Shown here: positions 1,285-17,972 of the stretch, piece by piece
Position numbering within the stretch: position 1 is the first letter of the stretch
Layout: each line of letters begins with the position of its first letter
Source: an uncultured virus (IMG/VR IMGVR_UViG_3300032220_001209)
Lineage: Duplodnaviria > Heunggongvirae > Uroviricota > Caudoviricetes
Virus record (IMG/VR): IMGVR_UViG_3300032220_001209
Direction: 5' to 3' (one strand)
DNA: 20,000 nt
Notes under the pieces: model-generated
Database searches by the model: none
The model's input: only the letters and a program-made list of their open reading frames with translations
What the model was told of the DNA's origin: nothing
Made by a program: the position numbers and the translations under genes

Positions 1285-1286
1285 AT

Positions 1287-2735
1287 ATGCCTGACGATAT
1301 TAAACAAAACACAGACTATGGATATGATATACAGAAAGTATATCTAGAAATGATGCTGAGTGATGCACAAACATTTGTGCGTTGTCAAAACATATTTGAT
1401 CACACTCTGTTTGATCGCAGACTTCAAACAGCAGCAGAATTCATTTACAATTATGTGAGCAAGTATAATGCATTGCCCACAGAAGAAATGGTAAATTCCA
1501 GTTGCAAAACTGAATTAAAAGTTCCCAGCAATCTTAATGAACAACACTTTGATTGGTTGTTGGATGATTTTGAAACATTTATTAGACACAAAGGATTAGA
1601 ACGTGCTATATTAAAATCAGCAGACATGTTGGAAAAAGGTGAATATGGTCCTGTGGAGGATTTGGTTAAGAAAGCAGTGCAAGTAGGATTGAACAAAGAC
1701 TTAGGAATCAACTATTGGGAAGATCCCAAAGGTAGATTAAAATCACTCAAAGATAACAATGGTCAGGTCAGCACTGGTTGGAAAACATTGGATAAGAAAT
1801 TGTTTGGTGGATTCAACAGAGGTGAGTTGAATATATTTGCTGGAGGATCAGGAGCAGGTAAATCTTTATTCTTAGCCAACCTAGGTTGTAACTGGGCATT
1901 GTCTGGATTGAATGTGCTGTATTTAACTTTTGAATTGGGAGAAGGATTGGTAGCAATGAGATTGGACAGTATGATGACCAATATACCTTCTAGAGAAATT
2001 TTTAAAGATTTGGATGGTGTGGAAATGAAAGTTAAATTGTTAGGTAAAAAGTCTGGCAGTTTTCAAATCAAATACATGTCTAGTGGTAAGAATGCCAACG
2101 ATATTAGAAGTTATATCAAAGAATTTGAAATTAAAAACAATAAAAAATTTGATGTGATATTGGTGGATTATTTGGATCTTATGATGCCAATCAGTAGAAA
2201 AGTTAGCCCCAGTGATTTGTTTGTTAAAGATAAATTTGTATCGGAAGAATTGAGAAATTTGTCCATGGACTTACAAACTATATTTGTAACAGCTTCTCAA
2301 TTGAACAGAGGTGCTGTGGAAGAGATTGAATTTGATCATTCACACATAGCTGGTGGATTATCCAAAATACAAACAGCAGACAATGTGTTTGGTATATTCA
2401 CATCCAGAGCAATGAGAGAACGTGGTAGATATCAAATACAATTGATGAAAACTAGATCATCCAGCGGTGTAGGTCAAAAGATTGATTTAGAATTTGATCT
2501 TGATTCTTTAAGAATTAGAGACTTGCCAGAAGACGAAGAATATAAAGAATTTGACAATAGAAAATCCAAAATATTTGACACATTAAAAAAGACCAGCACA
2601 GTGACAGATGAAATTCAATCTGAATCAATGCCTGTAGATCCCACACAAGGAGTTAATATCACTAAAACCAAAGTGGAAGCAGACTCTACCAAACTGAGAC
2701 AATTTCTAAATAATTTAGGACAAGACAAAGAATAA
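1287..2735 (+). CDS. Replicative DNA helicase, DnaB/T4 gp41-like (SF4)
   Basis: Walker A GGSGAGKS, Walker B VILVDYLD, ASQLNR and MKTRSS motifs. ATG 1287 is preferred over the TTG at 1272. Confidence 0.93.
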   Translation: MPDDIKQNTDYGYDIQKVYLEMMLSDAQTFVRCQNIFDHTLFDRRLQTAAEFIYNYVSKYNALPTEEMVNSSCKTELKVPSNLNEQHFDWLLDDFETFIRHKGLERAILKSADMLEKGEYGPVEDLVKKAVQVGLNKDLGINYWEDPKGRLKSLKDNNGQVSTGWKTLDKKLFGGFNRGELNIFAGGSGAGKSLFLANLGCNWALSGLNVLYLTFELGEGLVAMRLDSMMTNIPSREIFKDLDGVEMKVKLLGKKSGSFQIKYMSSGKNANDIRSYIKEFEIKNNKKFDVILVDYLDLMMPISRKVSPSDLFVKDKFVSEELRNLSMDLQTIFVTASQLNRGAVEEIEFDHSHIAGGLSKIQTADNVFGIFTSRAMRERGRYQIQLMKTRSSSGVGQKIDLEFDLDSLRIRDLPEDEEYKEFDNRKSKIFDTLKKTSTVTDEIQSESMPVDPTQGVNITKTKVEADSTKLRQFLNNLGQDKE

Positions 2736-3752: not shown

Positions 3753-4688
3753 TTACTGGGTGTTTTTTGGGGGGTTTTGGGTGGTGTGTGCCCACAGTTT
3801 TTGCACCACTTGATTCACACATGTTTTCCAATCTTTCACTGCGGATTCTGCATCTGCCTGCCACCAAATATCTTGATCCCACCAGCCTGCTTGTATTCTC
3901 ACTGTGTGATTGTTCACCTGAGCCACCACTCCTGCTGCTGTGTCACAATCGCCATTGATGCCAGCCAACACTGCTCGCTCACACCACAACTCCACTGTCT
4001 CTTTGGGCAGCAGCAGTGGTTGCCATAAATCCCAACTTCTTTGATCTCGCTCTCTGATTTGAACCACCACACAACCAGCACCTGCTGCTGGCAGCATCAG
4101 TTGAGGATCCAAACACCAGTGTTGACCACTCCAAGTGGGATGATTCCAATTGTTCACAGTGTCCAACAGATGCAATCTCTGCACAGCACACTCCGCCATG
4201 ATGATGGCAGAATATTCGCCATTGATTAATTTTTTTAATCGTGTGCCAATGTTGCCTCTCAATGTGACCACATCCACGTCTGGTCGCAACAATTTGAATT
4301 GTGCAGCACGACGAGCACTGCTGGTACCCACTCTGCTGTAACTGGGAATTTGTGAGATGTGACCGTATGCACTCAACACACAATCTCTGCGATCACCTCT
4401 CTGCCACACACAGCCCAACAGTGTGGTGCCTGGTTCAATTTGCGTGGGCACATCTTTGGCACTGTGAACCACACAGTCCACTTCACCTGCCAACAGTGCT
4501 TGTTCTAACTCTCTGCAGAATGCACCTTTGCCTCCCACTTCACTCAAGGGTCGATCCAGCACACGATCTCCGGTGCTGATAATCTGACGAATTGATGTGG
4601 GAATTTGTAAACCTTGCAAGGCCCACTGTGTTTGCACCATGGCCAGGTCTGACTGACGACTGCCCACAGTGTACACAGAATTTTTCAT
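3753..4688 (-). CDS. hemC: Porphobilinogen deaminase (hydroxymethylbilane synthase)
   Basis: GSRQSDLAMVQT, TGDRVLDRPL, GGKGAFCRELEQALL, VHSAKDVP, GTSSARR, LRGNIGTRLKKL, and the cofactor Cys in ERAVLAGINGDCDT. Confidence 0.92.
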   Translation of the reverse strand: MKNSVYTVGSRQSDLAMVQTQWALQGLQIPTSIRQIISTGDRVLDRPLSEVGGKGAFCRELEQALLAGEVDCVVHSAKDVPTQIEPGTTLLGCVWQRGDRRDCVLSAYGHISQIPSYSRVGTSSARRAAQFKLLRPDVDVVTLRGNIGTRLKKLINGEYSAIIMAECAVQRLHLLDTVNNWNHPTWSGQHWCLDPQLMLPAAGAGCVVVQIRERDQRSWDLWQPLLLPKETVELWCERAVLAGINGDCDTAAGVVAQVNNHTVRIQAGWWDQDIWWQADAESAVKDWKTCVNQVVQKLWAHTTQNPPKNTQ

Positions 4689-4949: not shown

Positions 4950-5020
4950 TATTGAATCCTTTGTTTTTGAATATTTATGTATTATATTTTACACTAATTA
5001 AAATTTGATAAGTACAAGTG

Positions 5021-5491
5021 ATGGCTATTTTATATCAATTACGCTGCTCTAATCAACATCAATTTGAAGGTTGGTTTCCCAGCATAGCACAATTTGACAC
5101 ACAAAAAGAAAAAGGACAATTGCAATGTCCCATGTGCGGTATCAAAGAAGTGGATCGTGCCATCATGGCTCCTATGTTGGGTAAAAATAAAAAAACCAAA
5201 ACCAAAAAACTCACACGTCAAGAACGCTTGGATGCATTAAAAGATCAAGTGCAGTCTCCCACAGAAATGATGATGGGCACTCGAGTCAAAGAAATGATGC
5301 GTACCATACGTGATCATGTCAAACGTGAATATGAATTTGTGGGTGATCGCTTTGTGAAAGAAGTTAAAAAATACGAACATGGTGAACGTGATGATCGTTT
5401 TTATGGAACTCCTAGCGAGGAAGAAGCACGCAAATTGATAGAAGAAGGTGTGGATCTGTTTGTGGTGCCTGATGTTAAGGACGATGCCTAA
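5021..5491 (+). CDS. DUF1178 family protein (Zn-ribbon)
   Basis: YQLRCSNQHQFEGWF, CPMCG..VDRAIMAP, VGDRF..E, YGTPSEEEARKLIEEG. Confidence 0.85.
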   Translation: MAILYQLRCSNQHQFEGWFPSIAQFDTQKEKGQLQCPMCGIKEVDRAIMAPMLGKNKKTKTKKLTRQERLDALKDQVQSPTEMMMGTRVKEMMRTIRDHVKREYEFVGDRFVKEVKKYEHGERDDRFYGTPSEEEARKLIEEGVDLFVVPDVKDDA

Positions 5492-6506: not shown

Positions 6507-7568
6507 TTATTTGTCGGCGGGTATGTGTGGCAGCACAAATTGTATGCCCAGCCAACGGAAGTTTTTTGGACTGTCAGCAAAACTACAATTAATTCTCGCA
6601 GTTCTTACTTTGTAAGGATTCAATGGCTCAATAACTATTTTAGTTTCTGTTATAAACCTAATAGGCACTGTGGGCCAGCTGTCTCCATCGTTGGTGGTAC
6701 ACACTATATTTTTTAAATTTTTTAATCCTGGTACAAACTCTATCTCCAACTGTGGAGGATTTTTGAATTCTGTGATTTTTTTATCTGCAGGTAAAAATTC
6801 CTTGTAAGGCATAGGTAGTGTGTTCAACACCATTTCAAATCGTTCGGCTTTGCCCCAATTCTCATTGATGGGAAATCGTGGCAGCTCAAACCGATCTTTG
6901 CGACTGTCCACCACTCCTGAATGCTGTCCAAATGCCAATCTGAATCCCATGTCTTTGACCAGTTCTTTGAATTCTAGGCTGTATTCTCCAAATGGGTATG
7001 AGAAGTATTCAGGTATGGAACCCAACTCTCTCATGAAATCTTGCGACGCTCTTTCCATGTCCTTGCGCAGTGTGTCTTGATCCCAACCCACCATGTAGTC
7101 GTGACTGTAAGAGTGATGTCCTATCACTCCCAAACCTGACTCGTGTATCTCTCGAATTTGAGTCCAGGACATGTAATTACGATTCTTGGAATTGATCTCT
7201 CTAGTATTGATGAACAGCACAAAAGGTATACCTTCTTTTTTTAAGATAGGCCATGCATGTCGATAAAAACTGGCCCAGGCATCATCCACAGTTAATAGCA
7301 CTCTTTTATTGTACAGTTCTCTGTGCCCATGCATGTAGTCATCAAACTCTTCTATGGAGATAAAGTCCAGATTCATCTTGCGTATCATCTTGATCTGCTT
7401 TTCAAACTCTTTGACTTTAACATTGGTTGAGGGATATTTGTTTTCGTCAAACTTGTGATACATCAAACCGATCACGCCGGGTTCTTGATGAGGCTGCATG
7501 GAAAAAGTTGGAACCGTAAACGAAAGTATTAATAATAAGGAAATAATTAATTTGTTAAATTGGGCCAT
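6507..7568 (-). CDS. Exported polysaccharide deacetylase (CE4/NodB, IcaB/PgaB-like)
   Basis: Signal peptide, LMYH, LTVDD, GHHSYSH, FSYPFGE and LPRFPI motifs. Confidence 0.88.
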   Translation of the reverse strand: MAQFNKLIISLLLILSFTVPTFSMQPHQEPGVIGLMYHKFDENKYPSTNVKVKEFEKQIKMIRKMNLDFISIEEFDDYMHGHRELYNKRVLLTVDDAWASFYRHAWPILKKEGIPFVLFINTREINSKNRNYMSWTQIREIHESGLGVIGHHSYSHDYMVGWDQDTLRKDMERASQDFMRELGSIPEYFSYPFGEYSLEFKELVKDMGFRLAFGQHSGVVDSRKDRFELPRFPINENWGKAERFEMVLNTLPMPYKEFLPADKKITEFKNPPQLEIEFVPGLKNLKNIVCTTNDGDSWPTVPIRFITETKIVIEPLNPYKVRTARINCSFADSPKNFRWLGIQFVLPHIPADK

Positions 7569-8323
7569 TTTTTAAGATCTAGAGTTTTTTCCACTTGACT
7601 TTTGGCTTTGGGAAGTTTGGGCATAAAATTGATGCCAGTGGATTTTTCAACAGTTTCCACTGTGGTGGCGTAGTTGGGTAAATCTGCTACAGGTAATGCA
7701 GCATTGGGAAATAAAAATGCGATTGCTTTGCCTTCCTGACGGTCCACAATTACTTTCCATAGATGTGTGGGTACTCCTACTTTGTTGTCACCAATGGTGA
7801 GATGTCCGGATTGATAAATGGTACCACTGATCACATAGATATCCATGTTGTGATCCACCACCCAATCTCTCACATATTCTTCCAATTGTTTCCAAATGCC
7901 TCTGTTGTGATTGGGCACTTGTGGAACCATGTTGGATAAAAAGAAACTTTCACTCATCACTTGGTCATTTTGTGTATTATTGCCAGCCGGAGCCAGATGT
8001 CCTCTGTCGTAAGGATGTCCAGCATAATCTTTCAATGTAGCATTGTATTGGGCAGGTATTGCAGGGTCTGGTCTAAAATCATCTTTGCGTTTGGCAGGAC
8101 CTGTGGTGTTTTCTTTGGTCACATGCTCTACCACATATTCCGCTGTGCGAGTGTCATATCTGTAATGAATAGCATAATTGATCTTGCAGATATACTGAGT
8201 ATTCTGTTTGATCTTACTCACAGGTGCGCCTAACAGCACGTGTTGAGGACATTGGTCGTCGATGGGATTGGCCCAAACTCCTGTGATTGATAAAATTAAA
8301 ATTAATAATATTTTATAGTACAT
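7547..8323 (-). CDS. Exported DNA/RNA non-specific endonuclease (NucA/EndoG family)
   Basis: Signal peptide, YDRGHLAPA, SFFLSNMVPQ..NRGIWKQLE and VPTHLWKV. Confidence 0.92.
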   Translation of the reverse strand: MYYKILLILILSITGVWANPIDDQCPQHVLLGAPVSKIKQNTQYICKINYAIHYRYDTRTAEYVVEHVTKENTTGPAKRKDDFRPDPAIPAQYNATLKDYAGHPYDRGHLAPAGNNTQNDQVMSESFFLSNMVPQVPNHNRGIWKQLEEYVRDWVVDHNMDIYVISGTIYQSGHLTIGDNKVGVPTHLWKVIVDRQEGKAIAFLFPNAALPVADLPNYATTVETVEKSTGINFMPKLPKAKSQVEKTLDLKKWPNLTN

Positions 8324-8411: not shown

Positions 8412-8723
8412 TTATTTTTTCTTTTTTTTGGCAGGTTTTTCGTCTTCGTCTTCAAAATCTACGTCTATTTCTTCGTCAAGATCTTCTATATCTTCTTCAG
8501 ACTCGTCTTCACTGTCTTCACTGTCTTCGCTGTCTTCATCAGTATCATCCTCATCTTCAAAATAAGAATCATCAGAATCAGTATCTTCTTCGTCTGAATC
8601 TATTTCGTAAATGTAGTTTTCAATGATTGATTTAATCTCAGTTTGTTTTTCTTGTATTTTTTCTATAGAGTCGTCAATTTGTTCAAACAGTTTGTCAATT
8701 TTCTTTTGATTAAGTTTAGCCAT
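8412..8723 (-). CDS. Highly acidic low-complexity protein (103 aa)
   Basis: GGGAGG SD and TAAATA at 8751-8756. N-terminal coiled coil, long D/E tract and KKKKK tail. Confidence 0.75.
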   Translation of the reverse strand: MAKLNQKKIDKLFEQIDDSIEKIQEKQTEIKSIIENYIYEIDSDEEDTDSDDSYFEDEDDTDEDSEDSEDSEDESEEDIEDLDEEIDVDFEDEDEKPAKKKKK

Positions 8724-8843: not shown

Positions 8844-9314
8844 ATGACAATATCAAACATACTTAAACCTATCAGTGTGGCTCTAGCTATATTCTTAGCT
8901 GCAGACTACTCCCTTGCTGGACCATTGCCTGACTACTCGTTCAAAAGCCCTGCTTTTAATGGCAATGGTTACAGCACTCACGAGTTGACCAAGTATAACC
9001 TGGAACAAACTCGTGCCAAGGAGATTCAACAGGCCTTGGAATCCAAAGCTGCGGCTGCCAAAGCAGAGGCCAAGAACACTCCAATCAATCAGTTCATGGT
9101 CAATTTGGAATCAAGAATTTATGCACAGATCAGTCAAAATCTAGCCACTGCCATGTTTGCGGATGGGGCAGCCACCACTGGCAGCATGACCTTCCAGGGC
9201 AACACCATATACTGGAACAAGAACGGCACCACGAGCATCACGTTGATGGTGACAGATACTCTGGGCAACAACACAACCATAGAAGTGCCATTGGGACAAT
9301 TTACATTTAATTAA
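8844..9314 (+). CDS. csgF: Curli assembly component CsgF-like
   Basis: Signal peptide, N-terminal YSFKSPAFNGNG and F..NLESRIYAQISQNL, immediately upstream of csgG. Confidence 0.8.
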   Translation: MTISNILKPISVALAIFLAADYSLAGPLPDYSFKSPAFNGNGYSTHELTKYNLEQTRAKEIQQALESKAAAAKAEAKNTPINQFMVNLESRIYAQISQNLATAMFADGAATTGSMTFQGNTIYWNKNGTTSITLMVTDTLGNNTTIEVPLGQFTFN

Positions 9315-9315
9315 T

Positions 9316-10173
9316 ATGATAAAAATTGCTTTGACATTGGGATTATTATTGCTGAGTAATTGTGCAGTGATGCAGAAGGCCGGCATGGAAAGCAAACCTG
9401 AAATCACTGAGATGAAAATGCAAAAAGAATTTGACACAGTACCTACACCAGCACAGAAGAAGATCACTGTGGCAGTGTACAGTTTTCAAGACAAGACAGG
9501 ACAGCGCAGGAACACTCCCAACGTGGCCAGTTTCTCCACAGCGGTCACCCAGGGTGCGGAACCATTCCTGATCAAGGCCCTGCAGGACGTGGGCAAGGGT
9601 CAATGGTTTGATGTGGTGGAGCGAGTGAACGTGGACAACCTGATCAAGGAGAGAACCATCATCAAACAGATGAGAGACATGTATGAGGGCGGCAATGCCA
9701 AGAGTGTGCCACCATTGCAATTTGCAGGCATCATTGTGGAAGGTGGCATCATAGGCTACGACAGCGGTATGGAGTCAGGTGGAGCTGCTTACAAATGGTT
9801 GGGCATAGGACCACAATCACAATATTCCAAAGACGTAGTGACCATCAGTTTAAGAGCAGTATCAGTGAGCAGCGGCAAGGTGTTGGCTACTATCACAGTG
9901 AGCAAGACAATTTACAGCACAGCAGACAGCATTGCCATATTGAAAGCATTCAGAGGCGGCACTGCATTTTTTGAAGCTGAGACAGGACTTACTATCAACG
10001 AACCCACCACTCTGGCAGTAAAGGCCACAGTCGAGGCAGCAGTGGTGGAATTAATAAATGAAGGCGAGCGCAAAGGTATTTGGAGTTTTAAAGATCCTAA
10101 ACCTGAGAACCTAGACGAGTGGTATGAAAATAATAACCAACAATTAAACAAAAAACAAGAGGAACAAAAATGA
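9316..10173 (+). CDS. csgG: Curli secretion channel CsgG/HfaB family lipoprotein
   Basis: Lipobox LLLSNC, AVYSFQDKTGQRR, FSTAVTQGA, WFDVVER...NLIKERTII, EGGIIGYD and DVVTISLRAVSV. Confidence 0.92.
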   Translation: MIKIALTLGLLLLSNCAVMQKAGMESKPEITEMKMQKEFDTVPTPAQKKITVAVYSFQDKTGQRRNTPNVASFSTAVTQGAEPFLIKALQDVGKGQWFDVVERVNVDNLIKERTIIKQMRDMYEGGNAKSVPPLQFAGIIVEGGIIGYDSGMESGGAAYKWLGIGPQSQYSKDVVTISLRAVSVSSGKVLATITVSKTIYSTADSIAILKAFRGGTAFFEAETGLTINEPTTLAVKATVEAAVVELINEGERKGIWSFKDPKPENLDEWYENNNQQLNKKQEEQK

Positions 10174-11117
10174 AAAATATGAAAATAATAATTCCTTGCT
10201 TGGTTACCATACTATATTCAACATCAGCTTTGTCTGATGATAATTTGATTTATATTGACCAAGTGGGTTCGTCATCTGACGTCACAGTGACACAGACAGG
10301 CAGTGGCAACACAGTGGGTGGTACCAGTGGTGCGGCTGCAACAGGTAATAGAGCGTCTTTGTCAGGATCAGATCAAACCATCAGTGTGACACAAACTGGC
10401 GATGGCAACACATTAAAATTAAAAACACAAGATGGATCCACAGGAACCAGCACAACGAACTATTCAGCGACCGGTGACAACAACACGTCTATCGTGGACA
10501 CTGTGAGCTCGGGTGCAGGTAACACCATCAATCAAACCATATATGGTAACACCAACACTACCAATGTCAATGTTAGAGGCAACAGTGGTGCCAACTCTGT
10601 GACCACAAATATTGGAACATCGGGTGCCAACAGCAACAGCAACACTGTGAATCAAAGTACCAGCGGTACTCTGAACAGTCAAACTGTGAGCATCACAGGT
10701 GGCAACAGCAACACCGTAACTGTGCTGCAAGGCAAAGGATCTTCTCTGACCAATGATATCACAGTGCCCACCACTTCAGGCACGTTGTTGGGATTAGATT
10801 CCGCCACATTTGGATCTGGCTCAACCAGTGACAAGGCCACTGCTTCAGTAACCATACAGGGTGGCAGCAACAATGTGAGAATTGGACAGGTGGGTGGAGA
10901 TGCCACAGGCAACTCGGCCACTGTGGACATCTTAGGATCTTCCAACGGCATCAGCATTGCACAACAGGGACTGGGACACAGCTCATCTAGTTTGACTGTG
11001 ACTGGTGGCAGCAACACTTTGAACGTGGGACAGAATGCCACGTCAGGCAACACCAATACTACCACTATGAGTGTGACTGGCAGCAACAACTTGGTCAACA
11101 TACAACAAAATCACTAG
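10170..11117 (+). CDS. Curlin-repeat (CsgA/CsgB-like) secreted protein 1
   Basis: Signal peptide and S/T/G/N-rich repeats of the hxQxGxxNxh type (IYIDQVG, VTQTGSGN, VTQTGDGN, IQGGSNN, VTGSNN), directly after csgG. Confidence 0.8.
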   Translation: MKNMKIIIPCLVTILYSTSALSDDNLIYIDQVGSSSDVTVTQTGSGNTVGGTSGAAATGNRASLSGSDQTISVTQTGDGNTLKLKTQDGSTGTSTTNYSATGDNNTSIVDTVSSGAGNTINQTIYGNTNTTNVNVRGNSGANSVTTNIGTSGANSNSNTVNQSTSGTLNSQTVSITGGNSNTVTVLQGKGSSLTNDITVPTTSGTLLGLDSATFGSGSTSDKATASVTIQGGSNNVRIGQVGGDATGNSATVDILGSSNGISIAQQGLGHSSSSLTVTGGSNTLNVGQNATSGNTNTTTMSVTGSNNLVNIQQNH

Positions 11118-11126
11118 GAATGTCCA

Positions 11127-11948
11127 ATGAGACTTCTAAATTGGCTCACAGCAGGATTGATACTTTCCTCAACAGCCTGCTGGGCAGCTGATAACGAAGC
11201 CTACATTGATCAACTGGGAGAATATGCCACCATCTATGTGGAACAGGATGGTTCAGCCAACAGCCTGGGTGGAGTGGACGGACCCATATGGTACAGCAAT
11301 CCTGCCATGATGTATGGTGATGGTCAAAACGTGGACATCAGACAGGTAGGGTCTGGCAACTATTTAAAATTTTCCATCTTCACCAAATTGGAAGACTACG
11401 AATATACCAGAACCGGAGTCACATGCACAGGAGTGTGCGGTGAAGCGGATGCCAACGAGTTCGTGGTGTACACCACTGGCTACGGCAATCTAGGCACAGT
11501 GAACGTCAATGCCGATGGAGAAGTGGAAACATCTGGCATAGCACTGTACCTTTCGGAGACTGGAGATTTCAATGAGAGCAACATATCCATCACTGGGTTG
11601 AAGCACACAGTGGTGCTGCTGACCATGGGAGATGTGAACACATTCAACAGTGTGACCACAGGCGAAGAGAACTTCTCCTATGCCAGTGTGACCGGATATC
11701 TCAATAATATTTCTATCACTCAGAGTGGCACTAAAGGTTTGGTCATATTGGACATAGCAGGCAATCAGAACACTGCCACTGTCACTCAATCAGGTGGCGG
11801 GGCATTGGGTCATTGGACCAATCTTTCTGTCAGTGGCAATCTCAACACTCACACCATAGCACAGTCGGGCACAGCCGCAGACAGTGTGGTGGATATCAAG
11901 ACCACGGGCGGCAGCAACAACTTTAACATCAACGTGAATTCAAGATAA
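11127..11948 (+). CDS. Curlin-repeat secreted protein 2
   Basis: Signal peptide, AYIDQLG, VEQDGSAN, IRQVGSGN, IAGNQNTATVTQSG and VSGNLNTHTIAQSG. Confidence 0.75.
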   Translation: MRLLNWLTAGLILSSTACWAADNEAYIDQLGEYATIYVEQDGSANSLGGVDGPIWYSNPAMMYGDGQNVDIRQVGSGNYLKFSIFTKLEDYEYTRTGVTCTGVCGEADANEFVVYTTGYGNLGTVNVNADGEVETSGIALYLSETGDFNESNISITGLKHTVVLLTMGDVNTFNSVTTGEENFSYASVTGYLNNISITQSGTKGLVILDIAGNQNTATVTQSGGGALGHWTNLSVSGNLNTHTIAQSGTAADSVVDIKTTGGSNNFNINVNSR

Positions 11949-13069
11949 TGAAAAAGATCCTATTATTGATGCTGTTATACACCACTGCTGTGTATCCAGC
12001 AGCCATAGGAACCATCACAGAACAAACAGCAGCACCAGGTTCTATTGTGAGAAATAAGAATACCATCACAGGCACCAAAGGCACAGGCATAGAGATGCAG
12101 GATGCTGTGAACACTGCCAAGGGCAAAGTGGGCATAACATTTGAAGATGCCACTCGAGTGGAAGTGAATGAAAATTCCAAACTCGTGATAGATGATTTCG
12201 TTTATGACGCTAAAAAAGGTTCAGGCAAATTGGCCATGAAGTTTGCCGAAGGCACAGTGAGATATGCCTCGGGTGCTATTGCCAGCAAGAATCCCAACTC
12301 AGTCAACATCAACACACCATCTGCCACCATCGCAGTGCGAGGCACGGACTTCACTGCCACTGTGGATGAAGTGGGTGCTAGCACCATTATTCTATTGCCC
12401 AGTTGTCCCAAAGGTTGGGCAGACATAGACAGAGATTGCAAGACAGGGGTCATTGATGTGATGAACAATGCAGGCACAGTCACTTTAAACAAACCCTTTC
12501 AAGGTACCAGAGTGGAAAATAGAAACACCATGCCATTAAAACCTACCATACTGAGTTTGAATTTAGATACCATCAATAACCTGTTGATTGTGAGTCCTCC
12601 CAAAGAGATCAAACAAGCACAGGAACAATATGACAACGAAGCAAAAAACACAGCCAGCATGCTGAATGAAAATCTATTGGACAGCAAGGATTTTTTAAAA
12701 GATGAATTGAAAAGCAGGAACGAGTTTGGAGATAATCCCCTGTTGGAAGATCTACTGGGACAAAATTTCTTGGCCAACATCTTTGATATATTGGAACAAC
12801 AAATAAAAAATGAAAGAAAAGCGGTGTTAAAAAGTGCATTGGTCCCAGAAGGTGACAGCCTGCTGCCGGACTACAATCCTGACACAGGAGTAAAGGCCAC
12901 AGTGGGTGCATCGGAAGTGACGCTGTGCCGCAATGATGGCAGCAACAATCAGTGCATCACCACACCGCGCGGCCAGAGCAGCACAATCATACAAGGTCAA
13001 GGACCAGTCAGCATTCAGAATAGAGTTAACTCAGGTGGCAGCACAACCATAACAGTGATACAAAAATGA
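11948..13069 (+). CDS. Exported FecR-domain protein
   Basis: Signal peptide and FecR beta-domain motifs MQDAVNT, ITFEDATRVEVNENSKLVID and INTPSATIAVRGTDF. Confidence 0.82.
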   Translation: MKKILLLMLLYTTAVYPAAIGTITEQTAAPGSIVRNKNTITGTKGTGIEMQDAVNTAKGKVGITFEDATRVEVNENSKLVIDDFVYDAKKGSGKLAMKFAEGTVRYASGAIASKNPNSVNINTPSATIAVRGTDFTATVDEVGASTIILLPSCPKGWADIDRDCKTGVIDVMNNAGTVTLNKPFQGTRVENRNTMPLKPTILSLNLDTINNLLIVSPPKEIKQAQEQYDNEAKNTASMLNENLLDSKDFLKDELKSRNEFGDNPLLEDLLGQNFLANIFDILEQQIKNERKAVLKSALVPEGDSLLPDYNPDTGVKATVGASEVTLCRNDGSNNQCITTPRGQSSTIIQGQGPVSIQNRVNSGGSTTITVIQK

Positions 13070-14448
13070 GAAATATATTAATAAGTTTAATGTTGATGTT
13101 GTTTTTTGCCAATTCAAAAGCACAAGCAATTGCTTACTCTCCCAATGGCACCACAGGATTGAATCTTGTTTACAATGGTGATGTTGATGATACATTTTTT
13201 ACTGTTAATCTACCTTGGACTGTAAATTTTTTAGGAAGTAATTATGGTACTATCTATGTAGGTTCTAATGGTTATATTACATTTTCATCAGGTAATAATA
13301 CATATAGTGGATTTTCTCCTTCTAATCCTGGAGGCCCACATTTAAGTATAATTCCAGGTGACCGTAGATTACGTAAATTATATTCTGCTGAACTTAATGC
13401 TGGAACTTCTAATGCTAAATTTGTTATTAGAGTGGAAGGAGTTGATTATTCTAATGCAGGCATTACTCACATATACGAAGTTCATTTTTATTCTGGTCAA
13501 TCTTATTATGATGTTTACTTTGTTGATTCTCCATCATCAGGAAATCAAAACGGTGGGACCACAGCCATCAGTAATGGATCTGCATATGTATTAAATTTCA
13601 GCTCAACAGAATCAACTGGCATAAGAATTAATTCCAACGGAACTCTGTATGTTGAGTCTTCACCTGTGGGCGGTGGAGGCAGTTACACCAGCAACATCAC
13701 AAACACACAACAAACCAACATCACTGCCAATAGAAACAGAACCACAGCCCTGAACAACGGCAATGAGATCTACATAGATCAAGTGGGAAACAATAACACA
13801 ACAACAATCACTCAAAAAGGTAATAATAATAAAATCACAGGTACCACACAGCAAACTGCCACCATATCAGGCAACAGCAACTCTACCACTATCAGACAGA
13901 ACAGTGGCACCGGTAAAAATTTAATAGATTTAAATGTGACCGGCACGGGCAGCAACACTCTCAATCTCAACCAGGGCTATCTGTCAGATGGCACACTGAG
14001 TGGCAATCAATTGGGCAACAACTATCAGAAAGTGGATGTGCAGGGCAACAACAACTCACTGACCACTCAGCAGAATAGAGATGTGGGCACTGCGGGCAAT
14101 TACATGGAACACACTGTGATCGGCAACTATAATTCTATCACCAGCACACAGTCTGGAGACAACAAACTGTTATTCAATTCTATCACGGGCAACAACAACA
14201 CCGTTAGCACCACACAGTCAGGCACAGGTGCTCAACACTACATTGACTTGACACTGAATGGTGCAGGCAACACTGCCACTGTGAATCAGAGTGGCAACAC
14301 ACAGAACAAGGCCACCATAGTGATCAACAATTTGGGTGGATCAGCGGGTGTGAATCTCACACAGACCGGCGGGCAAACCTACAACATCACTACCAACTGC
14401 GTGACACTGGGCGGTTGCGGCACTACCACGGTGAACCAAGCACAATAA
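13066..14448 (+). CDS. Curlin-repeat secreted protein 3 with extra N-terminal (NIDO-like) domain
   Basis: Signal peptide, N-domain DDTFFTVNLPWTVNFLG..YVGSNGYITF, and C-terminal curlin repeats (EIYIDQVGNNN, ITQKGNNN, VQGNNN, ITGNNN, VNQSGN). Confidence 0.75.
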   Translation: MRNILISLMLMLFFANSKAQAIAYSPNGTTGLNLVYNGDVDDTFFTVNLPWTVNFLGSNYGTIYVGSNGYITFSSGNNTYSGFSPSNPGGPHLSIIPGDRRLRKLYSAELNAGTSNAKFVIRVEGVDYSNAGITHIYEVHFYSGQSYYDVYFVDSPSSGNQNGGTTAISNGSAYVLNFSSTESTGIRINSNGTLYVESSPVGGGGSYTSNITNTQQTNITANRNRTTALNNGNEIYIDQVGNNNTTTITQKGNNNKITGTTQQTATISGNSNSTTIRQNSGTGKNLIDLNVTGTGSNTLNLNQGYLSDGTLSGNQLGNNYQKVDVQGNNNSLTTQQNRDVGTAGNYMEHTVIGNYNSITSTQSGDNKLLFNSITGNNNTVSTTQSGTGAQHYIDLTLNGAGNTATVNQSGNTQNKATIVINNLGGSAGVNLTQTGGQTYNITTNCVTLGGCGTTTVNQAQ

Positions 14449-14459
14449 ATACTCATATT

Positions 14460-16496
14460 ATGAAATGGGTCAGTCCTTGGACAGCAATCATCACTTTGAT
14501 ATTAATCCTCACTGTTAGGATGGCAGACCCCGCATTTGTGGAGAGTGTGCGACTGAGATACTTTGACACTCTGATCACTGGCAAAACTGCCACACAAAAC
14601 AACATATACACTGTTAACATTGACGAGAAGAGTTTGGAGCAGTATGGGCAATGGCCATTCCCCCGAGATGTGTATGGCCGGATTATCCAAGATTTGTATG
14701 ACAGAGGAGCAGGACTGGTGGTGTTCAACGTGCTGATGCCAGAACCAGATCGCAGTGGCAAAGATGCGACATTGGCAGAAACCATGAAAAAACATCCTGT
14801 GGTGTTGAGCAATGTGCCAGCACAACAGACCAAGAATGAACCCCGAGTGCCAGGCTCAGCAGTGCTGGGACCAGAACATCTTAACACCATTGTGAAATAT
14901 TCAGGCATGATTGCCAATATACCGTCATTGGAAAATGCTGCTGTGGGAGTGGGAACCACCAACACACTGCCAGAGATAGATGGCGTGAACCGACGACTGC
15001 CTCTGATAGTCACTGTGGATGGAAAATTATATCCCAACCTTGCAGTGGAAACTCTGAGAGTGGCCACAAACAATTCTACATTTCAAGTCAAGTTAAATGT
15101 GAATGGTGTGGAGAAGATGAGACTGCCTGGAGACATAGGCATCATTGACACAGACTCCTTAGGCAGAGTATGGATAGATTGGAGTCAACGGAATCACTCA
15201 GTGTCTTTAAATGATCTACCCGCAGACTTCAAAGGATCCATAGTGATAGTGGGCACATCAGCAGCAGGCATAGCCAATCCAGTGGCCACAGCCATAGGAC
15301 CAGTTTGGCCTCAGGATCTACAAGCAGCCGTGATAGGCACCATGATCAACAAAGTGAATATCAAGAGACCTGATTGGGCAGAGGGTGCAGAAGCAATCAG
15401 TTTAATACTATTGTCCTTGACTTTATTATTTTTAAGCAGATGGGTTTATGTGGGCATGGCAATGGGAGTCATTATGATTGTTGCCGTGGTTCCTTTGAGC
15501 AATCTTTTTTACACACACAATCTTTGGCTGTTGGATGGCACTCTACTGGTGGCAGGATTGACATTGGTGATGCTGCATGCCTATGGTATCAAATTTGTCA
15601 GTGAGTATCTACAGAAACAGAGAATCAAGAAACAATTTGGTGGATATGCATCTCCCATGGTGGTTGAAATGTTGCAGAAGAATCCAGACATAATCAAACA
15701 AGGTATTAAGAAAGAAGTCAGCATTTGTTTTTCAGATCTGCGTGGATTCACTCCACTGGGAGAATCATTTGGCGATGATGTGAAAGGATTGACTGAAGTG
15801 ATGAATGGTTATATGGATGCCATCACACAACCTGTGTTGGATGCCAACGGCATGATCATCAAGTACATTGGTGATGCCAGCATGCACATTCACAATGCAC
15901 CCATGGATGATCCAGAACATCCTAAAACAGCAGTGCAGACTGCTCTCCGCATGTTGAAGGCAGTGGAACGTTTCAATGAGACATTAACAGCCAAAGGTAG
16001 ACCCATTGTGGGCATGGGTGCTGGTATCAACACTGGTCTGGGTTATATCGGTGAAATGGGCAGCACACAGCGACATTCATATGATGTGTTGGGTGATGCT
16101 GTGAGCACCACAGCAAGATTGGAAAGTCAATGCAAGAACTATGGAGTGCTATTGATAGTGGGTCCTGAAACCCATCGCAGAACTGAAAATGATTTCTTCT
16201 ATCTCAAACTGGATGATTTGGCAGTGAAAGGCAAAACTGTGGGGCTGGACATCTACACAGTGCTGGATTTAAATTCCTTAGAACATGCTCAAGACAAAGA
16301 ATTGCACAATGCCATGCATGCGGATTATCGCAATCAAAAATTTGATGCAGCCATTGCAAAATGTAAAAAATTAAAAGGCAGTTTCAATGGTCTGATGGAC
16401 AAATATTATAAGATGTGGCAGGAACGTTGTGAATACATGCAAACACAAACACTGCCCACAGACTGGAATGGTGTGTTTATTGCCACCACCAAATAG
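14460..16496 (+). CDS. CHASE2-domain class III adenylate/guanylate cyclase
   Basis: N-terminal TM, CHASE2 motifs (IDEKSL..YGQWPFPR, EPDR..D, DGVNRRLPL), three TM helices, and cyclase motifs FSDLRGFT, IKYIGDA, GINTG, YDVLGDAVSTTARLES and VKGK. Start placed at ATG 14460. Confidence 0.9.
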   Translation: MKWVSPWTAIITLILILTVRMADPAFVESVRLRYFDTLITGKTATQNNIYTVNIDEKSLEQYGQWPFPRDVYGRIIQDLYDRGAGLVVFNVLMPEPDRSGKDATLAETMKKHPVVLSNVPAQQTKNEPRVPGSAVLGPEHLNTIVKYSGMIANIPSLENAAVGVGTTNTLPEIDGVNRRLPLIVTVDGKLYPNLAVETLRVATNNSTFQVKLNVNGVEKMRLPGDIGIIDTDSLGRVWIDWSQRNHSVSLNDLPADFKGSIVIVGTSAAGIANPVATAIGPVWPQDLQAAVIGTMINKVNIKRPDWAEGAEAISLILLSLTLLFLSRWVYVGMAMGVIMIVAVVPLSNLFYTHNLWLLDGTLLVAGLTLVMLHAYGIKFVSEYLQKQRIKKQFGGYASPMVVEMLQKNPDIIKQGIKKEVSICFSDLRGFTPLGESFGDDVKGLTEVMNGYMDAITQPVLDANGMIIKYIGDASMHIHNAPMDDPEHPKTAVQTALRMLKAVERFNETLTAKGRPIVGMGAGINTGLGYIGEMGSTQRHSYDVLGDAVSTTARLESQCKNYGVLLIVGPETHRRTENDFFYLKLDDLAVKGKTVGLDIYTVLDLNSLEHAQDKELHNAMHADYRNQKFDAAIAKCKKLKGSFNGLMDKYYKMWQERCEYMQTQTLPTDWNGVFIATTK

Positions 16497-16511
16497 ATAA
16501 ATACACATATT

Positions 16512-16790
16512 ATGGACTTTCTTAAATTAGCCATTGACGTGGGATTTCCCATTGCAGCAGCAGTGGCTTGTGGATTCTTTGTGTTCCTCACACTGAAATT
16601 TATATTGGCATCAGTGACATCAGATGTGAAGAAACTCAGCGGTATCATTGAAGCCTTGGACAACCGTGTCAAGACCATGAATGCAGATGTGATACGCATT
16701 GACACATTGGTGAGCTCCACTTTAAACATACGCCCTGATCTGGAACGCATTGGCCGAGCAGATGGCAAAACCGACGCAAGGAAAGATTAG
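16512..16790 (+). CDS. Small membrane protein, holin candidate A
   Basis: One TM helix after GFPIAAA followed by a coiled coil, upstream of the endolysin. Function is inferred from position. Confidence 0.6.
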   Translation: MDFLKLAIDVGFPIAAAVACGFFVFLTLKFILASVTSDVKKLSGIIEALDNRVKTMNADVIRIDTLVSSTLNIRPDLERIGRADGKTDARKD

Positions 16791-16791
16791 C

Positions 16792-17061
16792 ATGGGCAAA
16801 GATCTAGTGGTTCTAATCAATCAGTATGGTTTTCCTATTATTGCTGCGTTCGGCATGGGCTACTTTATCTACTTTGTGTGGAAGTGGGTGACCACTGAAA
16901 TTAAACCTGTGATGAGCGAAACCAGTAAAACACTCATAGCATTGGTGGACCGAATCAGAATGTTGGACAATGACTTGATCAGATTGAACACCAAATTGAA
17001 TGTGATACTGGAACATCAAGAAGAACAACAAAAACAACGTCAACCTAAGGAACCCCGATGA
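16792..17061 (+). CDS. Small membrane protein, holin candidate B (paralog of A)
   Basis: YGFPIIAA TM helix plus coiled coil (LVDRIRMLDNDLIRLN). Starts 1 nt after the stop of A and overlaps the endolysin start. Confidence 0.6.
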   Translation: MGKDLVVLINQYGFPIIAAFGMGYFIYFVWKWVTTEIKPVMSETSKTLIALVDRIRMLDNDLIRLNTKLNVILEHQEEQQKQRQPKEPR

Positions 17062-17678
17062 GCTTTACTTTTGACTTCACTGAAAATAAATTTGCACAAC
17101 TGATCAGCAACAACACCCAAGAATGGTATCAAGCCTTGGTGAACAATCTACCTCTGTATGATATCAACACTCCAGAGCGAGTGGCAGCATTCATTGCACA
17201 GTGTGCTCATGAATCGGGTGGATTTCGTAGATTGAAAGAAAATTTAAATTACAAGTGGGAGAGTTTGAGACGAGTGTTTCCTAAATATTTCCCCACAGAC
17301 GATGTGGCACAGGAATACGCACACAAACCCGAACAGATTGCCAACAGGATATACGGCAGCAGAATGGGCAATGGTGATGAAAGCTCAGGCGATGGATTCC
17401 GATATTGTGGCAGAGGATTGATACAATTGACCGGCAAAAACAATTACACTAAATTTGCTGAAAGTATAGGCATGGCAGTGGAAGAAGTGCCCACACTGTT
17501 GGAGACCTATGACGGTGCTGTGAAATCAGCCTGCTGGTTTTGGAGCAGCAACAACTTAAATCAATGGGCTGATGCAGGGGACATACTGACCATGACCAAA
17601 CGCATCAACGGTGGTACCATTGGTTTGGAAGATCGTATCAAACATTACAATCATGCTATGGAAGTGCTGCAGAATTAA
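17058..17678 (+). CDS. Glycoside hydrolase family 19 endolysin
   Basis: AAFIAQCAHESGGF, ENLNY, IANRIYGSRMGNG, GRGLIQLTGKNNY and TKRINGG.IGLEDR. Confidence 0.9.
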   Translation: MSFTFDFTENKFAQLISNNTQEWYQALVNNLPLYDINTPERVAAFIAQCAHESGGFRRLKENLNYKWESLRRVFPKYFPTDDVAQEYAHKPEQIANRIYGSRMGNGDESSGDGFRYCGRGLIQLTGKNNYTKFAESIGMAVEEVPTLLETYDGAVKSACWFWSSNNLNQWADAGDILTMTKRINGGTIGLEDRIKHYNHAMEVLQN

Positions 17679-17735
17679 CTGCGCACACAACTAATACTAT
17701 CTGTTAACTGATGGCTGTGCAGTTCTAAATACTTG

Positions 17736-17972
17736 ATGAAAATACTATTGGTGATCCTGATCTGTTTTCAGGGCGAATGCAAATACATAGTGAGCCGAGA
17801 GCCCACATTCACACAAAAAGCAGAATGCGAACAGTTCAGCCGTCAGGTGCTGAGAACTGTGGATCAGAAGATATCCAACAGCCACAATCAAGTGATGTGC
17901 TTGAATGAGCTGCAGTTGGCACAGCAGCAATTGCTGTGGTACTATGAAGGTATTCCTCAGGCCGAGCAATAG
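17736..17972 (+). CDS. Small exported Cys-containing hypothetical protein
   Basis: Hydrophobic N-terminus, 4 Cys, and TAAATA at 17726-17731. Confidence 0.6.
   Translation: MKILLVILICFQGECKYIVSREPTFTQKAECEQFSRQVLRTVDQKISNSHNQVMCLNELQLAQQQLLWYYEGIPQAEQ

Follow-up and report, generated by a model that had tools for sequence, protein, structure and literature searches.

Why would a phage carry genes for curli secretion next to a gene for a membrane receptor cyclase, and do these genes form one system? The window that we analysed (the whole stretch of 20,000 nucleotides from an uncultured virus) contains ten genes on the + strand that abut each other from position 8,844 to position 17,678. ORF coordinates, Pfam, and PHROGs bear out the initial annotation, which had described ten co-oriented, abutting genes at just these positions. 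Five of them are of the curli type (CsgF, CsgG, and three proteins with curlin repeats); the others encode a protein with a FecR domain, a class III cyclase with a CHASE2 domain, a pair of small paralogous membrane proteins, and an endolysin of the GH19 type:

8844..9314, + strand: CsgF-like protein of 156 aa that starts with a signal peptide (Pfam PF10614, 3.6e-15; phrog_35372, 2.3e-46)
9316..10173, + strand: CsgG-like outer-membrane lipoprotein channel, 285 aa (PF03783, 5.9e-46)
10170..11117, + strand: curlin-repeat protein 1, 315 aa including a signal peptide (PF07012, 25.0 bits; cut-off 20.7)
11127..11948, + strand: curlin-repeat protein 2, 273 aa including a signal peptide (PF07012, 24.8 bits; cut-off 20.7)
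11948..13069, + strand: FecR-type exported protein, 373 aa including a signal peptide (PF04773, 1.8e-11)
13066..14448, + strand: curlin-repeat protein 3, 460 aa including a signal peptide (PF07012, 23.0-26.5 bits; cut-off 20.7)
14460..16496, + strand: membrane receptor cyclase, 678 aa when translated from the ATG, in a reading frame open as far back as a TTG at 14415 (PF05226, CHASE2, 1.8e-40; PF00211, Guanylate_cyc, 6.8e-16)
16512..16790, + strand: tm1, small bitopic membrane protein of 92 aa in which a helical tail follows an N-terminal TM helix (phrog_18771, 3e-33)
16792..17061, + strand: tm2, 89 aa when translated from the ATG, a paralog of tm1 (phrog_18771, 8e-34)
17058..17678, + strand: GH19 endolysin of 206 aa; its gene shares 4 nt with the end of tm2 (PF00182, 6.7e-9; phrog_181, 2.5e-78)

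Signal peptides, the lipobox, and the hydrophobic segments of the cyclase were read from the sequence, and the start of tm2 was picked from an alignment of homologs (the ORF lister starts it at a TTG at 16750). All of the module's proteins from CsgF through the third curlin have an export signal (a signal peptide or a lipobox). The genes are closely packed: CsgF and CsgG are 1 nt apart, CsgG overlaps curlin 1 by 4 nt, curlins 1 and 2 are 9 nt apart, curlin 2 overlaps the FecR gene by 1 nt, and the FecR gene overlaps curlin 3 by 4 nt. If the cyclase begins at the ATG at 14460, it lies 11 nt after curlin 3. It is followed by a 15-nt gap, by tm1, by another 1-nt gap (with the tm2 ATG at 16792), and by tm2, which overlaps the endolysin gene by 4 nt. 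None of the eight terminator-like sites that we found between 8,300 and 18,300 is on the + strand.

The phage context claimed for this locus also holds up: the module is 98% identical to one IMG/VR record over 2,746 bases, and its relatives are located on viral contigs. The carrier is probably a jumbo phage, judging from its replicative helicase, which is nearest to those of PA5oct, Atu_ph07, and other jumbo phages (51%). Related modules were found on IMG/VR contigs of 235-357 kb.

The window locus is one more instance of a module that has been published as the viral T8SS (curli), and the core set of genes was already known. A cluster of CsgF, CsgG, curlin, FecR, curlin, and cyclase genes in pelagiphages is described in the available part of Wittmers et al. 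2022 (PMC9599517); earlier papers on viral curli are Zaragoza-Solas et al. 2020 (PMC7029224) and Buchholz et al. 2022 (PMC9004378). The GenBank annotations of HTVC008M (KC465899) and Melnitz (MZ577098) give these genes in the same order, and the window's module proteins are 36-50% identical to theirs. The window shares the gene set and order with the pelagiphage modules, but its carrier's helicase is nearest to those of jumbo phages while the published carriers are SAR11-type podo- and myophages; it has three curlin genes instead of two; and its tm pair is downstream of the cyclase and abuts the endolysin, whereas the published small genes are upstream of csgF. Going by the published versions and the window's helicase, the module is found in podo-, myo-, and jumbo-type phages.

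In the available part of their paper, Wittmers et al. report one or two "histidine kinase" genes directly before csgF. These are probably the tm1/tm2 pair; tm1 matches no Pfam family and no kinase family. The same part of PMC9599517 has 0 occurrences of CHASE2, lists CsgF, FecR, and cyclase of HTVC008M in metatranscriptome rows (Data Set S1B), and remarks on the absence of CsgE and CsgC from viral curli. It also reports that fewer of the podophage versions contain the cyclase; curli genes can therefore occur in the absence of this enzyme. As had been claimed for the window, none of the CsgC, CsgD, or CsgE families was matched when we scanned its 23 ORFs with Pfam. The family scan of these ORFs also showed no cAMP receptor, no ECF sigma factor, and no TonB-dependent transducer or receptor.

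We searched for linkage by tblastn (E ≤ 1e-4) from three independent anchors, with 10-kb flanks. Across 31 cyclase-anchored viral loci (those with at least 7 kb upstream, out of 80 kept), FecR and curlin were present in all 31, CsgG in 29, and CsgF, tm1, and tm2 in 26 each. The tm1-anchored set (34 of 80 loci, with at least 9 kb on both sides) had tm2 and the cyclase at all 34 loci, FecR at 32, CsgG at 29, and CsgF at 28. With CsgG as the anchor (38 of 78 loci), CsgF and FecR were found 38 times, the cyclase 37 times, tm2 31 times, and tm1 29 times. In the majority of the misses, inserts displace genes beyond the 10-kb flank.

This near-perfect linkage shows a nine-gene unit that comprises tm1, tm2, CsgF, CsgG, one to three curlin-repeat proteins, the FecR-type protein, and the CHASE2 cyclase. 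Since all three anchors find the curli, FecR, and CHASE2-cyclase genes conserved as one viral unit, the refuting outcome named in the initial annotation (no co-occurrence in related genomes) is clearly not what we see. The tm1/tm2 pair are obligate members of the module, which is new here: tm1 is with the cyclase at 34/34 tm1-anchored loci, and the pair adjoins the module in three different gene orders. They precede csgF in 21 of the 31 cyclase-anchored loci and follow the cyclase in the window. They are true paralogs, with 24% identity and a common PHROG (phrog_18771).

In alphaproteobacteria, homologs of the phage FecR protein are within 5 kb of the CHASE2 cyclase at 6 of 20 loci, away from csgG; the other 14 loci have none. 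Together with the precedents in the literature that are described below, these homologs support the pairing of FecR with CHASE2 that the initial annotation proposed.

The secretion genes resemble bacterial curli (CsgG/CsgF/CsgA/CsgB of E. coli; PDB 4q79 and 6l7a) in having a nearly full-length CsgG, the CsgF family, and curlin repeats. Residues 3-261 of CsgG match E. coli CsgG (3x2r/4q79/6l7a) at 4.6e-43, and CsgF scores 56.7 bits against PF10614 (cut-off 25.8), with no PDB sequence match at E ≤ 1. The lipobox cysteine of CsgG (Cys16) is invariant in 11 viral homologs. The E. coli CsgG loop has a Tyr, an Asn, and a Phe that we take to be the constriction residues; only the Phe is kept, and Thr and Ser replace the other two. 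The window set further differs from bacterial curli in its lack of CsgC, CsgD, and CsgE, and none of the seven alphaproteobacterial csgG loci that we examined has the phage's additional FecR, cyclase, or tm genes.

Curlin-repeat protein 1 has five repeat stretches at lenient E. Curlin-repeat protein 2 is an additional copy relative to HTVC008M and Melnitz, and its homologs are present in the close relatives L025, L060, and L074. Curlin-repeat protein 3 has an N-terminal domain of about 200 aa, then curlin repeats, and then a Cys-containing C-terminus; its residues 1-245 match no Pfam family. For this N-terminal domain, the Atlas offers only a lead: one cluster (score 0.86) is 12% NIDO.

The cyclase is laid out as a TM helix, a periplasmic CHASE2 domain, three TM helices, a class III cyclase domain, and a conserved C-terminal tail of about 70 aa. 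Among PDB sequences, it is closest to the adenylate cyclases 6fht and CyaB (3r5g), and it is 30-35% identical to alphaproteobacterial CHASE2 cyclases over its full length. We assume that in class III enzymes, two Asp bind the metals, Lys and Thr/Asp act on the substrate, and Arg acts on the transition state. The metal Asp residues, the Lys, the Thr, and the Arg are all kept, as judged by alignment to CyaB (3r5g) and CyaC (1wc0) and by motif counts in 83 phage sequences. At the position of the transition-state Asn, the window cyclase has Ser, as do 77 of the 83 phage sequences; four, including HTVC008M, have Asn, and two were unread. All 16 readable bacterial CHASE2 cyclases keep the Asn. We predict that the cyclase is a membrane sensor that makes cAMP.

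The FecR-type protein has neither a cytoplasmic anti-sigma domain nor a TM anchor, as the signal peptide is followed directly by a beta domain. In the AF2 model (mean pLDDT 75.4), this N-terminal domain (residues ~17-215) leads to an acidic, low-confidence linker (213-302), taken to be disordered, after which six strands make up a C-terminal domain (315-372). Structure comparison of the model matched the N-terminal domain to the CCSSD of PupR (6ovk; Z 15.3, rmsd 2.9, 136 residues aligned). The protein thus shares a periplasmic FecR domain and a CCSSD-type fold with the FecR/PupR-type anti-sigma regulators, but it is without their anti-sigma domain, TM anchor, partner ECF sigma factor, and TonB-dependent transducer. 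The C-terminal domain resembles curlin repeats by profile comparison: against curlin C-termini, hhalign gave Prob 82.6 and a score of 30.4, while 60 shuffles reached a score of at most 10.9 and Prob ≤ 0.4. FecR proteins and curlins share a terminus of the form hydrophobic-x-hydrophobic-x-Q. The model of this domain had no solved-fold match (best Foldseek E 0.29; maximum VIA Z 3.6), and a plain curlin HMM picks up just one distinct protein among some 30 FecRs.

Residues 17-112 of the FecR model also match 5ix9, the retention module (RIN) of the LapA/MpIBP RTX adhesins (VIA Z 7.3, 73/76 residues; Foldseek TM 0.73, 28% identity over 63 columns). 5ix9 heads the PDB sequence matches of the FecR profile as well, at an E of 0.48, which is not significant. 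The RIN plugs a TolC-like pore from the periplasmic side (PMC5550230; bioRxiv 10.1101/198937). Both proteins combine a folded periplasmic domain, a flexible stretch, and an outward-destined part, but secretion is of type 8 here and type 1 there, and, measured against the direction of secretion known for T1SS, the domains come in the opposite order. By this analogy, we infer that the FecR-type protein may be retained in CsgG in a RIN-like manner.

There are precedents for a FecR-domain protein encoded beside a CHASE2 sensor. According to the available portions of the literature, the S. meliloti CHASE2 cyclases CyaD1/CyaD2/CyaK sense an external protein via the outer-membrane beta-barrel NsrA, CyaD1 is constitutive if its CHASE2 domain is deleted, and signal perception reportedly does not require SMc02177, a FecR-domain gene beside cyaD1. 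These cyclases have the same architecture as the phage enzyme, cyaD1 likewise has a FecR-domain gene beside it, and the signal comes via an outer-membrane protein, but that partner is not CsgG, there are no curlins, and the bacterial enzymes keep the catalytic Asn. Similarly, in the Burkholderia "BiofilmReg" operon and the P. aeruginosa PA4035-type pair, an exported LysM+FecR protein is encoded beside a CHASE2 histidine kinase (PMC5192318, as far as its text is available). These are tied to biofilm control, but their output is a histidine kinase, the partner has a LysM domain, and they have no secretion pore.

We propose, with a probability of roughly 40%, that the state of the fibre is relayed via the FecR-type protein and CHASE2 to cAMP. 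After Sec export, CsgG and CsgF would form an outer-membrane channel, and the curlin-repeat proteins would be exported to give a surface fibre. The FecR-type protein would act as the coupler: at its N-terminus, a FecR/PupR-type beta domain, the first part of which is also similar to the plug by which LapA/MpIBP adhesins are retained in the periplasm, would itself remain periplasmic, and the curlin-like C-terminal domain would bind curlin subunits or the base of the fibre. CHASE2 would read the state of this FecR-curlin link, and the cyclase would make cytoplasmic cAMP. tm1 and tm2 may be inner-membrane accessory parts of the device, and the target of cAMP could be lysis timing or host reprogramming. 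Such a relay is plausible; contact between the FecR-type protein and CHASE2 is predicted from gene linkage alone. In favour of the relay are the linkage from three anchors, the tm pair's place beside the module, the similarity of the FecR-type protein to PupR at one end and to curlin C-termini at the other, the FecR homologs at 6/20 bacterial CHASE2-cyclase loci, the S. meliloti precedent, and the metatranscriptome rows of HTVC008M. The Ser for Asn in the cyclase, the 14/20 bacterial CHASE2-cyclase loci without a FecR homolog, the lack of a solved-fold match for the FecR C-terminal model, the single FecR picked up by the curlin HMM, the scanned window ORFs without a cAMP receptor, and the podophage versions with fewer cyclases are observations against a relay.

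Another explanation is that the genes are transferred together but are functionally separate. The fibres would promote aggregation ("sibling capture") or exclude superinfecting phages, as has been suggested in published papers (including the available part of PMC9599517); the cyclase would be a host-takeover enzyme that raises cAMP regardless; and the FecR-type and tm proteins would serve either. The podophage versions often lack the cyclase (PMC9599517) and FecR or cyclase is found at 0/7 bacterial csgG loci, so the two halves can work apart. However, the linkage outlasts repeated rearrangement, with the cyclase at 37/38 CsgG-anchored and 34/34 tm1-anchored loci. Also, the cyclase retains a periplasmic sensor domain, which in a homologous enzyme is reported to hold activity down until there is a signal. 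We consider separate functions to be unlikely.

A lysis-timing device seems quite unlikely to us. Here CsgG/CsgF would be a gated outer-membrane pore or a pinholin-like trigger, as put forward for Melnitz from synteny and models (Buchholz et al., PMC9004378, in its available part), with tm1/tm2 of holin/antiholin type and the cyclase as a clock. The 4-nt overlap of tm2 with the start of the endolysin gene fits this, as does a weak match of tm2 to a holin family (phrog_4898, 8.4e-4), but the match covers just 18 residues, and no stretch passes alone. GH19 is within 10 kb of the module at only 1/31 cyclase-anchored, 5/34 tm1-anchored, and 4/38 CsgG-anchored loci, so it is a neighbour in this lineage and not a conserved part of the module. 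The short match and the 5/34 figure rule against tm1/tm2 as holins. In the isolate collection, homologs of tm1 are confined to the six records that also bear the module, unlike a holin, which would be spread across related phages. Furthermore, the curlin-repeat substrates are always present, and a bare pore needs none. The initial annotation had grouped the paralogs with the endolysin as a lysis block; the paralogs do stay with the module whatever the gene order, but the endolysin does not.

The FecR-type protein might instead stand in for CsgE/CsgC, by binding curlins via its C-terminal domain, preventing early polymerisation, and delivering them to CsgG, while the cyclase senses something else. 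Neither CsgE nor CsgC was found among the window ORFs, an absence that Wittmers et al. also noted, and the curlin-like C-terminal domain would suit this role. But it leaves unexplained why a FecR-type domain, which is also found beside bacterial CHASE2 cyclases that have no curli, is fused to a curlin-like domain, and we give this explanation little credence. It is very unlikely that the pore imports cofactors or siderophores with FecR as an iron regulator (the FecR name suggests this, and Wittmers et al. raise the option), given a FecR-type protein with no anti-sigma domain or TM anchor and no ECF sigma factor or TonB-dependent transducer among the window ORFs, or that these are repurposed virion parts (the alternative in the initial annotation), given the export signals from CsgF through the third curlin and a module that is shared by phages built very differently.

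Returning to the relay of fibre state to cAMP, the FecR-type protein could in principle be a trans-envelope tether: its C-terminal domain would exit through CsgG into the base of the fibre, the linker of ~90 residues would be threaded in the channel, and the folded N-terminal plug would stay in the periplasm, as it does in LapA-type adhesins, touching CHASE2. This more specific version is a long shot. If it were true, load on the external fibre, or its loss, would be converted directly into cAMP, and the phage would make its own sensor of surface contact or superinfection. The principle of a retained FecR-like plug that is read by CHASE2 might then also apply to those bacterial CHASE2 cyclases that adjoin type 1 secretion genes and giant adhesins.

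The ten genes that the initial annotation had placed at 8844-17678 were confirmed: they abut on the + strand, with gaps or overlaps of at most 15 nt between neighbours, and they carry the Pfam or PHROGs families listed here. This spacing assumes that the cyclase begins at ATG 14460 (its ORF is open from TTG 14415) and the second small membrane protein at ATG 16792; both starts are consistent with homologs.

Genes of the cluster (8844-17678)
CsgF, + strand: Pfam 3.6e-15
CsgG, + strand: Pfam 5.9e-46
Three curlin-repeat proteins, + strand: Pfam Curlin_rpt over the cut-off in each
FecR-type protein, + strand: Pfam FecR 1.8e-11
Cyclase, + strand: Pfam CHASE2 1.8e-40 and Guanylate_cyc 6.8e-16
tm1 and tm2 (two small membrane paralogs), + strand: both PHROGs phrog_18771
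GH19 endolysin, last gene, + strand: Pfam Glyco_hydro_19 6.7e-9; PHROGs endolysin phrog_181

Also as annotated, no CsgC, CsgD or CsgE family was found by Pfam in the 23 window ORFs scanned. There were no terminator-like sites on the + strand between 8300 and 18300, and inspection by eye gave no convincing candidate for a T4-type late promoter 5' of csgF. A sigma-70 promoter scan was uninformative (32 sites vs. 20.6 expected). The viral curli (T8SS) module in the window, by which we mean all of these genes except GH19, is real, intact and strongly conserved.

We tentatively propose, with a probability of roughly 0.4, that the module is one device made of a channel, a curlin fibre, a FecR adaptor, a CHASE2 cyclase that leads to cAMP, and tm1/tm2 as accessories. 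The curlin-repeat proteins would be exported through the CsgG/CsgF channel, and the FecR-type adaptor would connect the curlins or the fibre with the periplasmic CHASE2 domain. The cyclase would then signal to the cytoplasm as cAMP, with tm1 and tm2 as inner-membrane accessories. Gene content, linkage, folds and homologies are what we observed; we predict fibre formation, all of the protein contacts, the direction of signalling, the activity of the enzyme and the target of cAMP. If so, the infected cell would gain an organelle that is absent from the host: a secreted fibre linked with a second-messenger enzyme.

The initial annotation had read all ten genes as a single candidate surface-sensing cAMP system. 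We counted linkage in IMG/VR around three anchors (tblastn with the window's proteins, E ≤ 1e-4), using the best-scoring relatives rather than a random draw. Pattern-limited scans gave the number of relatives as at least 565 for the tm type, 592 for the CsgG type and 127 for the cyclase type.

Linkage of module genes in IMG/VR
Cyclase anchor (80 loci kept of at least 127 relatives; 31 with at least 7 kb upstream counted): FecR 31, curlin-like gene 31, CsgG 29, CsgF 26, tm1 26, tm2 26, GH19 1
tm1/tm2 anchor (80 kept of at least 565 relatives; 34 loci flanked by at least 9 kb on each side counted): tm2 34, cyclase 34, FecR 32, CsgG 29, CsgF 28, GH19 5
CsgG anchor (78 new loci scanned from at least 592 relatives; 38 fully flanked counted): CsgF 38, FecR 38, cyclase 37, tm2 31, tm1 29, GH19 4

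Because of these counts from three anchors, the curli genes, FecR and the cyclase clearly do occur together as one set in relatives, and this part of the earlier reading stands. Most of the misses are due to inserted genes that shift a part past the 10-kb flank. The genes may instead have separate functions and merely travel together. Another reading makes the module a lysis-timing pore. GH19, which had been included in the system, was present at few of the loci counted in any of the three sets, and the adjacency of tm2 and GH19 (4-nt overlap) is a trait of the window's lineage and not of the module.

We read tm1 and tm2 as parts of the module. They lie 5' of csgF on the same strand in 21 of the 31 cyclase-anchored loci and are convergent with the cyclase in 20 of the 38 CsgG-anchored loci; the window's arrangement, 3' of the cyclase on the same strand, is the third of three seen. 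In the isolated-phage collection, tm1 homologs occur in six records, which are the HTVC008M and Melnitz records that also carry CsgG. Neither protein has a Pfam family (best E 0.04-0.4), and the closest clusters in the Atlas are unnamed and exclusively viral (YvrJ, at 0.88, is a lead only).

The order csgF, csgG, curlin, FecR, curlin, cyclase is annotated identically in Pelagibacter phage HTVC008M and Methylophilales phage Melnitz. CsgG/CsgF genes are discussed by Zaragoza-Solas et al. 2020 (PMC7029224) and Buchholz et al. 2022 (PMC9004378); in the available text of each, neither FecR nor cyclase occurs. For podo- and myo-pelagiphages, the available parts of Wittmers et al. 2022 (PMC9599517) describe the cluster in full: its members include an adenylate cyclase, FecR and, 5' of csgF, one or two "histidine kinase" genes. 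They report it as globally distributed, with metatranscriptome hits, and Data Set S1B has rows for the HTVC008M CsgF, FecR and cyclase; CHASE2 is not mentioned in that portion of the text. The module is widespread in aquatic phages and expressed in the sea. As a candidate identity, tm1 and tm2 are probably that article's "histidine kinase" genes; nothing kinase-like was detected in either protein.

The module is therefore already in print, and what the window adds is a new carrier type and a rearranged gene layout. The DnaB-like helicase at 1272-2735 (+) is nearest to that of Pseudomonas phage PA5oct (51% identity), followed by Agrobacterium phage Atu_ph07 and Sinorhizobium phage Phosso and also XaC1 and SCTP-2, all of them jumbo phages, and not to T4-like marine phages. 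Related modules lie on IMG/VR contigs of 235-357 kb. The window probably derives from a jumbo phage, judging by these similarities, so its phage group differs from that of the published carriers. The module has moved between very different phage lineages.

In alignments of the cyclase to CyaB (3r5g) and CyaC (1wc0), both metal-binding Asp, the substrate Lys and Thr, and the Arg are kept, and the position of the transition-state Asn is Ser; these are the roles that we take the residues to have. The Ser form was found in 77 of 83 phage sequences and the Asn form in four, including HTVC008M and the close relative L060 (two were unreadable). Asn is kept in all 16 of the alphaproteobacterial homologs that could be read by pattern (20 in total). 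Because the Ser form is conserved, it is probably functional. L060 is 93%, 85% and 88% identical to the window in CsgF, FecR and tm1, but only 70% in its cyclase, which at 606 aa is shorter and carries an Asn motif of the bacterial type. Within the module, it seems, the catalytic half of the cyclase has been swapped.

A scan of bacterial genome contigs with the cyclase alignment, using two very specific patterns only, returned 10 loci and no close bacterial donor of the phage cyclase. Nine of the 10 are phage-type (51-74% identity) and lie in MAG bins of unrelated phyla; the other is a distant relative. The bins (loci L084-L092) are labelled Rhodobacteraceae, Chitinophagaceae, Pirellulales, Verrucomicrobiaceae, Marivivens and Algoriphagus, and their cyclase contigs are likely to be phage DNA that was binned into bacterial MAGs. 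One bin, G002, has five CsgG matches besides its phage-type cyclase contig.

The FecR-type protein has a signal peptide at its start and is without a cytoplasmic anti-sigma domain. Modelled by AF2 on an alignment of 32 sequences (mean pLDDT 75.4), it has an N-terminal beta domain at about 17-215 (pLDDT near 88), an acidic, low-confidence stretch at 213-302, and a C-terminal six-strand domain at 315-372 (pLDDT 85-90; 87.6 overall when folded alone). The N-terminal domain resembles 6ovk (Z 15.3), the periplasmic cell-surface-signalling domain of PupR, as well as 4m0n (Z 14.4), an anti-sigma factor from Bacteroidales. Part of it, residues 17-112, also matches the MpIBP adhesin's periplasmic retention domain (5ix9; Foldseek TM 0.73, 28% identity, 63 columns; VIA Z 7.3, 73/76 residues aligned); 5ix9 is the top PDB sequence match of the FecR profile, at a non-significant E of 0.48. 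That retention domain is described, in the available text, as a plug that holds LapA-type adhesins threaded in their outer-membrane pore (PMC5550230; bioRxiv 10.1101/198937).

In hhalign, the C-terminal domain aligns end-to-end with the repeats at the C-termini of the module's curlins (Prob 82.6, score 30.4, 60 columns; Prob 52 against the second-curlin class alone). Controls scored 9.1 (reversed), 12.1 (FecR N-terminal domain) and at most 10.9 (60 column shuffles), and a hydrophobic-x-hydrophobic-x-Q ending is common to the module's FecR proteins and curlins. A plain curlin HMM matched one distinct FecR of about 30 (E 8e-5) and nothing unrelated among 1,759 ORFs; Pfam Curlin_rpt matched none of 18 FecR C-termini. 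Since the domain folded alone had no solved-fold match (Foldseek best E 0.29; VIA maximum Z 3.6 across 48,161 chains), the curlin-like reading comes from profile similarity only. The protein is predicted to join a FecR/PupR-type domain to a curlin-like one. Rather than the proposed adaptor, it could be a substitute for CsgE/CsgC. For the module, import or virion roles are further alternatives.

In the third curlin protein, the first ~200 aa (13066-13700, +) have no Pfam family. We dropped a NIDO-like domain as a candidate there (no Pfam match; Atlas lead only 0.86). Related second-curlin genes at other loci vary in their N-terminal extensions (246-575 aa in total).

As for bacterial counterparts, 66 of 151 alphaproteobacterial genomes sampled have CHASE2. 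The 20 best CHASE2-cyclase loci encode cyclases with 28-35% identity to that of the phage, in most cases over nearly its full length. By tblastn, six of these loci have, within 5 kb, a protein homologous to the phage FecR; a Pfam scan of neighbours, in which ORFs of some genes (among them the cyclase of L102 and L111) were taken from the wrong strand, found FecR at two. In two of these six cases, a giant cadherin/RTX-type protein carries the FecR-like domain close to its N-terminus. CsgG is absent from all 20 loci. Of 401 genomes, 8 gave CsgG relatives, including a MAG with phage-type contigs; at the seven other csgG loci, neither FecR nor the cyclase has a homolog within ~8 kb. The phage module thus has the look of a T8SS combined with a FecR/CHASE2-cyclase pair of bacterial type, a combination that we did not find in the bacteria sampled.

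Bacterial CHASE2 cyclases often adjoin envelope- or cAMP-related genes (alphaproteobacterial loci L104, L105, L108, L109, L111, L112, L113, L115, L116, L119 and L121), which suggests that CHASE2 may read the state of surface-tethered proteins. The neighbours include type 1 secretion parts (ABC transporter, HlyD, OEP), giant cadherin/RTX adhesins whose N-terminal domain is FecR-like, TPR(+SlipAM) outer-membrane proteins, and Crp-like or cNMP-binding genes. According to the available text of the sources, Burkholderia and P. aeruginosa encode an exported LysM+FecR protein next to a CHASE2 histidine kinase (PMC5192318), and CHASE2 cyclases of S. meliloti respond to an external protein via the outer-membrane barrel NsrA (PMC13001267). 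Also in S. meliloti, in the portion available, CyaD1 without CHASE2 is constitutive and the FecR-domain neighbour smc02177 is dispensable for signal perception (PMC5498481). The tm pair in the module, the FecR/PupR-type and curlin-like fusion, and the bacterial FecR/CHASE2-cyclase pairs replace a vague "regulatory" label with bench-testable claims and may bear on what CHASE2 domains sense.

Several genes flank the cluster.

Flanking genes in the window
289-1284, + strand: carbamoyltransferase-like (1.2e-29)
3753-4688, - strand: full porphobilinogen deaminase, HemC (6.3e-63)
5018-5491, + strand: DUF1178 protein
6507-8323, - strand: polysaccharide deacetylase (9.3e-25) and DNA/RNA non-specific endonuclease (2.4e-54), 22-nt overlap
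8412-8723, - strand: 103-aa protein, no family found
17733-17972, + strand: 79-aa ORF, no family found

HTVC008M likewise has a putative carbamoyltransferase near its curli module. HemC could be an auxiliary gene for tetrapyrrole synthesis; GC content is 0.45-0.46 in the HemC/DUF1178 region and in the module vs. 0.33-0.38 around the helicase. The deacetylase/endonuclease pair is just upstream of the module on the opposite strand, and the endonuclease has a signal-like segment at its N-terminus. The 103-aa protein, with its runs of D, E and S, is extremely acidic; its last five residues are lysines. The 79-aa ORF follows the endolysin after a 54-nt gap, has a hydrophobic N-terminus, and could be a lysis accessory.
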